Shown here: piece by piece, positions 1 to 2,312 of the stretch
How positions within the stretch are numbered: the first letter of the stretch is position 1
Layout: the number at the start of each line of letters is the position of its first letter
Source: Escherichia coli
Lineage (GTDB): Bacteria; Pseudomonadota; Gammaproteobacteria; Enterobacterales; Enterobacteriaceae
Reading direction: 5' to 3' (one strand)
DNA: 3,003 nucleotides
NCBI RefSeq assembly: GCF_003334385.1
Contig: NZ_QOWN01000096.1
Position numbers and translations under genes: made by a program
Notes under the pieces: model-generated
What the model was told of the DNA's origin: nothing
The model's input: only the letters and a program-made list of their open reading frames with translations
Databases searched by the model: none

Positions 1-2312
1 TCCACCGTCTGCCGTTCGCCCGTCAGGCGGCCTTTATCGTCATAGCCGTAGTGGACCGCCACACGGTGGCCTTCACTCAGGTGGCTGATTTCTGTCAGCC
101 AGCCGTGGTCGTCATACTGCCACTGCTCCGCCGGTTCACCGTTCACCGTGCGCCGGGTGATACGGTCTGACGCATCGTAATGCCAGAGGGTGATAAGCCC
201 CTCGTCTTCACTCTGCGTGAGTTTTCCGGTCAGGTCATAATGGTAACGTTGCGTCCGCCCGTCAAAGCCGCGCTGTTCAGTCAGCCTGTCCACCGGGTCA
301 TACCGGAACGTGGACTGGCTGCCGTTCTCGTTGGTCAGCACGGTGATGCGCCCGGCAGCGTCATACCCCATGCTGCGCGTCAGACCGCCCTGCGTGGTGC
401 TGATGGCTTTACCCCACGCATCATACTGTGTCTCACTGCGGCTACCGTCCGGGGCAATGATAGCGGTGAGGTCGCCTGCGGTACTGTACTCATAACGGGT
501 CTCCCGCCCCTGCGCATCCTTCTGACTGACCAGTTGCCCACGCGGGTTATAACTGCTGTAAGTGCTGATGCCTTCCTCCCGGTGAACGGCGATTTGTTGA
601 CCGTACCAGTCGTACTCATACCGCGTCGTGTACCCCGAGCAGTCCGTAAAGGCCAGCAGTTGACCGTAACGGCTCCATGCCATCTGTTTTGTACTGCCCG
701 TCGCATCCTCTATCCCTGTCGGCAGCTCACTCGCCGGGTCATCATAGCTGTAACTCGTCGTCTCACCGCTGCGTGAGGTCTCCGCCGCCAGCCTTCCCTT
801 CTCATCATACTCCCGGCTGCTGCGAAGCCCGTCCGGGTACGTCACCGACGTCACCTGCCGCTGGCTGTTATAGCCATACCGTACCGTCCTGCCGTCCGGC
901 CCCGTCACCGCCGTCACCGCACCCGACGCCATATGCAGGCTGTACTCCGTCCGCCGCCCCGCCGCATCCGTCTGCGCCTTCAGCCTCCCCGCCTCATCAT
1001 ACTCGCTGCGGGTGATGCTCCCGTCCGCATGCTCCTTTTTCACCACCCGCTTCAGGCCACCTTCGCCCTCCGTGTACAGCACCTCCCGCCGGTTCAGACT
1101 GTCCGTGATGATTACCCGGCGCTCTCCGTACTCAAAGCGGTAGTCCAGCCCCTCCGGGTTGACCTGCTCCGTCACCCGACCGGTATCATCATACCGGTAG
1201 CGGCTCTCCGGCCTCCCCGCATAATGGTGCGCCACCATCCGCCCGGCGTGCTCCGCATCATAAGTAAACCCGCGAACCTGCGTCCCGCTGCGGTCATACA
1301 CCGCCCGCAGTTCTCCGCTGGCCGTGTACGTGTAGCGCGCCAGCGGCGCAGTCGGCTGTTCATCCGGGTATGCCGGGTCGTGTGTCAGCCATACCGCCTC
1401 CAGCCGGATACCGTTATCGGCACCGTATTCTGTACCGGCGGGCAGCGTGTCGGGGAAAGCTGAAGAAGAAGAGGAAACAGAACGGGGACCGGCCGGAGAA
1501 GATAAGGAAGACTCGCGCTGTTTACGGAAGGCTTCCGCCCGCTGCGCCTGTGTGCTCAGCGCCAGGTGAAAACGGCGACCCGCGCCGTCCGTCACCCTGG
1601 TGATTTCGCCAGCCAGTTCGCCTGCGGCCTCGCGGTGGAAAGCCAGCGTCCGCCCGAAGCCGTCCACCACGCCCGTCAGCACCCGGTATGCGGGCGGCTC
1701 CGGCGGCAGCACCTCGTCCACCTCCGGCACCCGCTCCGGCCAGCTGAGTATCCACCACGGCCCCTGAAGGCTGTTTGCTGCCAGGTACGCATGCGGACTC
1801 AGGCGAACATCTTCCGGCAGCACCTGCCAGAGCGCGCTTAACGGCTGCGAGCTGTGCTGCGTCGCCACCCCGCCCCGCGCCAGCCAGAACGACTCGCTGC
1901 GGCTGTAGCTTATCTCGCCGGGAAACAGCGGCTCAAAGTGAATGCTCCTGCCGCCGCTGTCGTTGAGTATCAGTTCCCGCTCATGAACCTGTAAGCGGAT
2001 ATCGAAGGGCGCTTTCCAGCCGGGACCGAACACCCCCACCGGCGCGGGCGTCCTGGTCCGGTAGCTGCTGTAAGCGCGGGAAAGAATAAACGGCAACGGG
2101 CCGGGCAGCGCAAGGTCCGTCTCGCCCGGCAGCACCTTCGCACCCAGCACCGGGTTCACCGGGTGGCCCTTCTGCTCCTCTATCGGGCTGTTGGGACATA
2201 CCGAGCAGGCCACTCCCGTCGGCGCACCTATCAGCACACCTGCTGAACCCTGCACAATATCCAGTCCCTTGCGGGTCATGTCACCCTGCCGCGCCGCCGG
2301 TTTTCCGCTCAT
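1..2312 (-). CDS. rhs: Rhs family YD-repeat protein, N-terminal ~770 codons; 3' end (C-terminal part of the repeat shell and any toxin tip) lies beyond position 1
   Basis: ATG at 2312..2310 is preceded by AAGGA (2320..2324, 7-nt spacer) and by an in-frame stop at 2316..2318, so it is the 5'-most start. Hand translation gives MSGKPAARQGDMTRKGLDIVQGSAGVLIGAPTGVACSVCPNSPIEEQKGHPVNPVLGAKVLPGETDLALPGPLPFILSRAYSSYRTRTPAPVGVFGPGWKAPFDIRLQVHERELILNDSGGRSIHFEPLFP..., then ...ELAGEITRVTDGAGRRFHL..., ...LSTQAQRAEAFRKQRESSLSSPAGPRSVSSSSSAFPDTLPAGTEYGADNGIRLEAVWLT..., YD motifs such as RYRYDDTGRV (1173..1202) and HYGYDDKGRLTGE (15..53). I scanned every codon of this frame from 3 to 2312 and found no stop. 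The sequence closely resembles enterobacterial (E. coli-type) Rhs N-terminal and core regions as I recall them from memory. Confidence 0.93.
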   Translation of the reverse strand, partial: MSGKPAARQGDMTRKGLDIVQGSAGVLIGAPTGVACSVCPNSPIEEQKGHPVNPVLGAKVLPGETDLALPGPLPFILSRAYSSYRTRTPAPVGVFGPGWKAPFDIRLQVHERELILNDSGGRSIHFEPLFPGEISYSRSESFWLARGGVATQHSSQPLSALWQVLPEDVRLSPHAYLAANSLQGPWWILSWPERVPEVDEVLPPEPPAYRVLTGVVDGFGRTLAFHREAAGELAGEITRVTDGAGRRFHLALSTQAQRAEAFRKQRESSLSSPAGPRSVSSSSSAFPDTLPAGTEYGADNGIRLEAVWLTHDPAYPDEQPTAPLARYTYTASGELRAVYDRSGTQVRGFTYDAEHAGRMVAHHYAGRPESRYRYDDTGRVTEQVNPEGLDYRFEYGERRVIITDSLNRREVLYTEGEGGLKRVVKKEHADGSITRSEYDEAGRLKAQTDAAGRRTEYSLHMASGAVTAVTGPDGRTVRYGYNSQRQVTSVTYPDGLRSSREYDEKGRLAAETSRSGETTSYSYDDPASELPTGIEDATGSTKQMAWSRYGQLLAFTDCSGYTTRYEYDWYGQQIAVHREEGISTYSSYNPRGQLVSQKDAQGRETRYEYSTAGDLTAIIAPDGSRSETQYDAWGKAISTTQGGLTRSMGYDAAGRITVLTNENGSQSTFRYDPVDRLTEQRGFDGRTQRYHYDLTGKLTQSEDEGLITLWHYDASDRITRRTVNGEPAEQWQYDDHGWLTEISHLSEGHRVAVHYGYDDKGRLTGERQTV
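1461..1511 (-). other. Ser-rich low-complexity linker within Rhs (SSLSSPAGPRSVSSSSS), between the N-terminal domain and the YD-repeat region
   Basis: Hand translation of 1461..1511. On the plus strand the tract reads tga aga aga aga gga, i.e. a short AGA/GGA trinucleotide run. Confidence 0.6.
2196..2303 (-). other. PAAR-like motif region at the Rhs N-terminus (residues ~4-39)
   Basis: KPAARQGDMTRKGLDIVQGSAGVLIGAPTGVACSVC resembles a single PAAR repeat unit (P-A-A-R-x-G-D followed by a G/V/I-rich strand segment). There is no long hydrophobic transmembrane-like stretch in the first ~150 residues. Confidence 0.45.

Follow-up and report, generated by a model that had tools for sequence, protein, structure and literature searches.

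The question raised by this locus is whether a serine-rich stretch in an Rhs protein of Escherichia coli is a linker between two domains, the length of which is varied by slippage of a simple sequence, or a part of the protein of a different kind. The window, by which we mean the whole stretch of 3,003 nucleotides (nt) analysed (contig NZ_QOWN01000096.1 of assembly GCF_003334385.1), contains the 5' part (770 codons; positions 1-2312, minus strand) of a gene for an RHS element core protein, as assigned from its translation, NF041261 and Pfam. Within this gene, a short tract, which reads (AGA)3-GGA on the plus strand, encodes part of a serine (Ser)-rich segment. An earlier note on this DNA described the segment as a flexible linker separating an N-terminal PAAR-like region from the YD-repeat shell, and suggested that its length varies among strains. 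Our results led us to a different reading, which we regard as probable: the segment belongs to a clade-specific, permissive, low-complexity Ser-rich loop in the beta-shell of a type VI secretion system (T6SS) Rhs toxin, and rare insertions and deletions (indels) of repeat units occur in this loop.

Composition and codon usage of the serine-rich segment

Translation of the minus strand confirmed that a Ser-rich segment is encoded at 1461-1511 and that it includes the trinucleotide run. The segment comprises residues 268-284 (SSLSSPAGPRSVSSSSS), and its codons are TCT TCC TTA TCT TCT CCG GCC GGT CCC CGT TCT GTT TCC TCT TCT TCT TCA. The TCC(TCT)3 tract at 1464-1475 (minus strand), identified by DNA alignment of alleles as the site of the length differences described below, corresponds on the plus strand to (AGA)3 at 1464-1472 and GGA at 1473-1475.

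Ten of the 17 residues are Ser, compared with 8.4% Ser protein-wide; the maximum count in 5000 residue shuffles was 9, and the binomial tail for a single stretch of 17 residues is 2e-7. The 10 Ser codons are without exception of the TCN type; the 770-codon frame has 7 TCT codons, and all of these are among them, whereas 44 of the 55 Ser codons outside the segment are AGY (Fisher p = 2e-6 vs the segment). Furthermore, no other 51-nt stretch of the coding strand is as rich in pyrimidines as the segment (84% Y, rank 1 of 2260). The Ser enrichment and the pyrimidine bias are significant, that is, non-random. The three-unit TCT run by itself, on the other hand, is not remarkable and is within chance: Tandem Repeats Finder, at a minimum score of 30, reported nothing at the TCT tract, and shuffling of the codons of the open reading frame (ORF) gave a mean of 1.3 runs of at least three units against the 1 observed (P = 0.72).

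The host gene

The rhs gene starts with ATG at 2312-2310 on the minus strand and extends past the left end of the window; the C-terminal aspartyl-protease plug, the PxxxxDPxGL boundary and the variable toxin tip of such proteins would be encoded beyond this end. In the NCBIfam profile NF041261 (RHS_core), protein residues 1-770 correspond to profile positions 1-765 of 1261, and the score of the 770 residues is 1542.5 bits, to be read against a curated cut-off of 2000 for the whole protein, as the gene is cut by the end of the window. Pfam profiles detected DUF6531 (PF20148) at residues 49-126 (E = 1.2e-18) and nine RHS_repeat matches at E <= 0.001, with RHS repeats spanning residues 329 to 767 and the first significant one at 329; the YD repeat profile TIGR01643 was also matched. 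The window protein has the DUF6531 plug followed by shell-forming YD/RHS repeats that characterises RHS element core proteins, and its model (see below) matches Rhs shells.

With 401 nt around the segment as the query, matches were obtained in 2362 of the 5426 complete E. coli genomes; they are annotated as RHS element core protein, and a genome can have up to four copies. Genomic DNA identical over the 401-nt and 91-nt stretches around the segment carries the RefSeq label 'RHS element core protein'. Thus, the host gene is a well-annotated and already known E. coli Rhs toxin. Its 770 residues match the E. coli RHS element core proteins (NF041261; the RhsA-H family, Hill laboratory) from end to end and show no essential difference from them, the window allele having one additional Ser codon in the loop.

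Position of the segment in the Rhs shell

Tse5 of Pseudomonas aeruginosa (8cp6) and RhsA of Pseudomonas protegens (7q97) are T6SS Rhs effectors with solved structures, and the window protein shares their architecture: the N-terminus is short and PAAR-like, a cleavage-site motif precedes PVNP, and the DUF6531 plug is followed by the YD-repeat shell. Tse5 is the closest solved relative by sequence. In Tse5, residues 1-47 form a small PAAR-like fragment, which is cleaved between K47 and P48, residues 48-124 form the N-terminal plug, equated with DUF6531, and the remainder is the shell (PMC10684867). Chain B of Tse5 (PDB 8cp6) starts at PVNP, which aligned to P51 of the window protein; this places the PAAR-like part at residues 1-50 and the plug at approximately residues 51-126.

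The PAAR-like region (MSGKPAARQGDM...; 2163-2312, minus strand), placed by homologue conservation and the Tse5 alignment, is conserved in sequence across 44 homologues, and the plug, as bounded by Pfam PF20148 (residues 49-126) and the Tse5 paper, is encoded at 1935-2168 (minus strand). The label 'PAAR-like' is used because the architecture is homologous to that of the N-terminal fragment of Tse5. The PAAR profile (Pfam PF05488) did not match the N-terminus even at E <= 10, and a PDB search with the N-terminus found nothing significant, the one weak motif-level hit being a PAAR-type chain (GKPAARxGD...IG, E = 0.43). The H50/P51 junction (2160-2165) aligns with the N-terminal autocleavage site of Tse5 at K47/P48; by analogy, cleavage at H50/P51 may release the PAAR-like fragment of the E. 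coli protein as well.

An AlphaFold2 model built on the 44 homologues (mean predicted local distance difference test [pLDDT] score 88; predicted template modelling score 0.84) superposed on the Tse5 shell chain 8cp6_B, plug included, with a template modelling (TM) score of 0.79 and a root-mean-square deviation of 3.2 A over 737 columns, and on RhsA 7q97 with a TM score of 0.75. Around the segment, two strands of the model (residues 237-241 and 247-254) are followed by a helix (255-270), a coil of low confidence and a further strand (302-311). The strand before the loop (residues 247-254; 1551-1574, minus strand), assigned from the predicted secondary structure and invariant columns, is preceded by a TDGAGRRF motif, of which D242 and R246 are invariant across the 44 homologues. 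The predicted helix (QAQRAEAFRKQRESSL; 1503-1550, minus strand) overlaps the first three residues of the segment. The low-confidence coil, which is the loop proper (residues 271-298; 1419-1502, minus strand), was delimited by pLDDT and by an alignment of 34 homologues. The strand after the loop (residues 302-311; 1380-1409, minus strand), placed by the model and by the Tse5 alignment, has the motif GIRLEAVWL; R303 of GIRL is invariant across the 44 homologues, and D299, G301 and L304 are nearly so.

Both flanking strands, with their shell-type motifs, belong to one beta-shell, and the plug ends at residue 126; therefore the segment forms a loop within the shell, about 140 residues beyond the plug, rather than the junction of the PAAR-like region and the shell. 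The separation of these two regions by the segment, as claimed in the earlier note, is thus not what is found, and the domain order has to be corrected to the PAAR-like region (1-50), the plug (49-126) and then the shell that contains the loop.

The pLDDT averages 58 in residues 271-280, 55 in 281-290 and 73 in 291-300, falls below 50 in residues 279-282, and exceeds 90 in the flanks. With pLDDT of 55-58 and its Ser content, the segment has the properties of a disordered, low-complexity stretch. Thus, of the 'flexible linker', the flexibility is retained as probable, judging from the confidence of the model, and the linker is not, as the flanks are parts of the same shell.

Distribution of the loop among homologues

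In a phmmer comparison with Tse5, residues 51-174 and 298-768 of the window protein aligned, and the region with the loop stayed unaligned; the region of strand 302-311 aligned from residue 188 of the Tse5 shell chain onward. Between these aligned parts, residues 121-187 of the Tse5 chain (67 residues) stand against 123 residues in the window protein, in which the helix and the Ser-rich coil are extra. In the alignment of 34 homologues, mostly distant, the 30 more distant sequences have a short or unrelated stretch from DGxGRxYxL to GWxxDxGxRL, and they lack the loop. The QAQRAE helix is confined to Rhs proteins of the Escherichia type. Of the four aligned sequences of this type, P0122, P0120 and the window protein have the Ser-rich coil, and P0123 has ISGGTEPSA in its place.

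For close comparison, the 120 nearest protein clusters, which are from Escherichia and Shigella, were used. The QAQRAE.-to-FPDTLP length is 24 residues in the great majority of them, 25 in the type of the window, 23 in an RhsA-like type and 27 in one cluster. The earlier note had proposed to compare the lengths of orthologues and had named an identical linker length and sequence as counting against it; the lengths and sequences are not identical. Small indels within the first 442 residues of the 120 clusters occur mainly in regions 41-50, 194-202 and 261-292, each of which contains stretches of low pLDDT in the model. Another low-confidence loop, at residues 191-210 (1683-1742; pLDDT 60-65), is rich in Pro and Glu (PERVPEVDEVLPPEPPAYRV) and is also a site of small indels. 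As for substitutions, a test of hypervariability was negative: the column entropy is 0.31 in the segment and 0.27 over the whole N-terminus, which ranks the segment 128th of 426 alignment windows, so its substitution variability is average.

Length changes at the TCT tract

DNA alignment of six alleles showed a clean 3-nt gap at the tract. The window allele has TCC TCT TCT TCT TCA, and the five other alleles have TCC TCT TCT followed by TCA, TCT, CAG or CTG; the extra Ser codon of the window allele is unmatched in any other sampled allele class. A sequencing error as the source of the extra TCT was ruled out, because it is shared by 125 complete genomes. These genomes were found with a 91-nt query around the tract in the complete E. 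coli genomes, in which 128 genomes belong to the lineage of the window: 125 match exactly over 91 nt with (TCT)3, one has a single substitution over the 91 nt, one (strain JP538) has (TCT)2 in an 88-nt match, and the state of one was not inspected. Approximately 537 genomes have other alleles, and among the matches listed all of these are 88 nt (86 nt for one 89-nt alignment) with (TCT)2. When the sequence of the window allele was altered to (TCT)2, its single perfect match was JP538, and when it was altered to (TCT)4, there was no exact match in the 5426 E. coli genomes.

The JP538 allele (locus L007) is 99.6% identical to the full 3003-base window, and the sole differences are one TCT, the deletion of which maps to 1470-1472, and a cluster of substitutions at 1975-1988. 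This cluster lies at codons ~109-113, about 500 nt from the tract, and looks like a micro-conversion. In the 27-residue variant, found in two assemblies (L008 and L009), the tract reads TCC TCT TCT TCC TTT TCT TCA, in which 9 nt are imperfectly duplicated in tandem (TCCTCTTCT then TCCTTTTCT).

Thus, three length events, namely the difference between (TCT)3 and (TCT)2 alleles, the (TCT)2 of JP538 and the 9-nt duplication, are all located at the tract, and they fit slippage or tandem duplication. The suggestion that the tract could change length in frame is borne out, in a minimal form, by these events. The expected variation of length among strains, on the other hand, is overstated: one-unit and 9-nt variants exist, but within the lineage of the window 125 of the 128 genomes are identical over 91 nt, and the tract does not serve as a variable-length device. 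The copy number does not vary among close strains as in a contingency tract, and a repeat of three units is not longer than expected by chance. The tract is not hypervariable, and changes of repeat units are rare. Data from human and chimpanzee indicate that the rates of tandem indels grow exponentially with tract length and that there is no lower threshold (PMC2997547); applied by inference to the present case, this means that slippage of very short tracts is possible, albeit rare. A literature search on trinucleotide repeat polymorphism in E. coli yielded only general or eukaryotic work.

Origin of the loop and alternative explanations

The most probable explanation of these results is that Escherichia Rhs proteins acquired the loop at a structurally permissive site of the shell that tolerates insertions. 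The chain would exit the shell wall after strand 247-254, form the short charged helix (255-270) and a disordered Ser/Pro/Gly coil (~271-298), and re-enter the wall at strand 302-311, and the loop would be located in the N-terminal third of the beta-shell. The Ser codons of the loop are of the TCY type, as opposed to AGY elsewhere, which suggests that the DNA of the loop was built by local duplication or slippage. The pyrimidine tract may have been both built and resized by local tandem duplication or slippage of TCT/TCC units. The +TCT event would define the allele lineage of the window, and the allele would then have been inherited unchanged. Slippage is the mutational mechanism that the sequence pattern suggests, and the loop most likely has no specific activity.

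Several points weigh against this explanation. The flexibility of the loop comes from a predicted model, and the structures of Escherichia Rhs proteins are unsolved. The Ser-rich loop is kept across several Escherichia and Shigella Rhs subfamilies, which could reflect function instead of tolerance. Slippage and other mechanisms of indel formation cannot be separated by sequence alone. Furthermore, base-by-base inspection was limited to nine DNA loci and to 120 clusters of proteins, compared with 3247 rhs places in the 5426 complete E. coli genomes.

An alternative possibility, which we consider unlikely, is that rhs paralogues and alleles recombined or underwent gene conversion (a 'rearrangement hot spot'), that this produced the length differences among strains, and that the tract has no mutational role. 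Substitutions close to the tract (E-S-S... and S-V-S) form a fixed haplotype with the (TCT)3 state, and strains therefore differ mostly by whole alleles. The up to four copies of the gene per genome, the second matching rhs place in JP538, which is a possible donor, and the substitution patch of JP538, with its resemblance to micro-conversion, also favour recombination. However, the identity of JP538 with the window extends over about 500 nt upstream of the missing TCT and, on the other side, to the end of the window. Other alleles differ from the window allele 2-10 nt from the tract, and therefore a conversion tract in JP538 would be only a few bases long; a local indel of one unit is the simpler reading. 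All three length events, moreover, are located exactly in the repeat, which is the signature of local duplication or slippage. That the segment is an interdomain linker between the PAAR-like N-terminus and the YD shell, with a length actively varied among strains by AGA/TCT slippage, appears to us quite improbable. The Ser-rich composition and the low model confidence would suit a linker, and the one-unit and 9-nt variants at the tract would suit such variation. However, about 220 residues, including the DUF6531 plug and about 130 residues of the shell, lie between the PAAR-like part and the segment, and the flanking strands have invariant motifs of the shell type. In addition, the repeat has only three units, nearly all genomes of the lineage (125/128) are identical, and (TCT)4 was not found.

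The loop may instead be functional, for example as a contact of VgrG or of an adaptor, as a protease-sensitive or hinge site for toxin release, or as a site of Ser modification, and this we hold to be very improbable. The retention of a Ser-rich loop of similar length across several Escherichia and Shigella Rhs subfamilies despite substitutions is in favour of a function. However, the conserved motif is limited to SLSSP, the substitution variability is average, and Tse5 and RhsA, the T6SS function of which has been experimentally characterised, align without the loop. A literature search found no mention of a serine-rich region in Rhs proteins in the library covered. A more specific proposal, that the TCN-coded loop is an Escherichia-specific exposed functional module (a hinge, a protease site or a contact for VgrG loading or cage opening) with a length tuned by repeat-unit indels, is in our estimate the slightest of these possibilities. 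If it were true, differences in behaviour would be expected among alleles that have from 23 to 27 residues in this stretch. Thus, a permissive loop with rare repeat-unit indels is the explanation that we favour.

Other features of the window

Upstream of rhs, an AT-rich ORF (GC 0.32) of 149 codons at 2389-2838 (minus strand) encodes a product with a hydrophobic N-terminus (MKYLMVLLSLFSG...); its RefSeq name is 'RHS element protein dsORF-h1', and it had no NCBIfam match in the profile search. The last ~95 nt of the transposase gene of an ISAs1-like element, ISEc1 (H-rpt type), are present at 2909-3003 (minus strand). In the window allele, rhs is thus downstream of an insertion sequence element and dsORF-h1; allele L008 instead has a VgrG gene 75 nt upstream. 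The copy of strain 300709 (L001) is without ~227 nt at window positions 237-463 and carries the annotation of a frameshifted pseudogene, so the window represents a different, intact copy.

In the YD-repeat region, Tandem Repeats Finder reported repeats at 902-920 (9-nt unit CCGTCACCG, 2.1 copies) and 134-149 (7-nt unit GTTCACC, 2.3 copies), which are in frame or trivial. Two antisense ORFs on the plus strand (1370-1603 and 1447-1569) lie wholly within the rhs frame and were rejected as products of the purine-rich complement.

Implications

Contingency loci are simple-sequence repeats that switch genes by slippage. The TCT tract resembles them in being a short tandem repeat in a coding region with a number of units that differs between alleles. 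Unlike them, it has three units, its changes keep the frame so that there is no on/off switch, and the copy number is nearly invariant within the lineage. The significance of the finding is small, as it concerns an ordinary permissive loop in a known protein. The loop would probably be a safe insertion point for tags in E. coli Rhs proteins. It also provides a clean small example of a low-complexity loop that may grow and shrink via repeat-unit indels, and of distinct codon usage that records this history.

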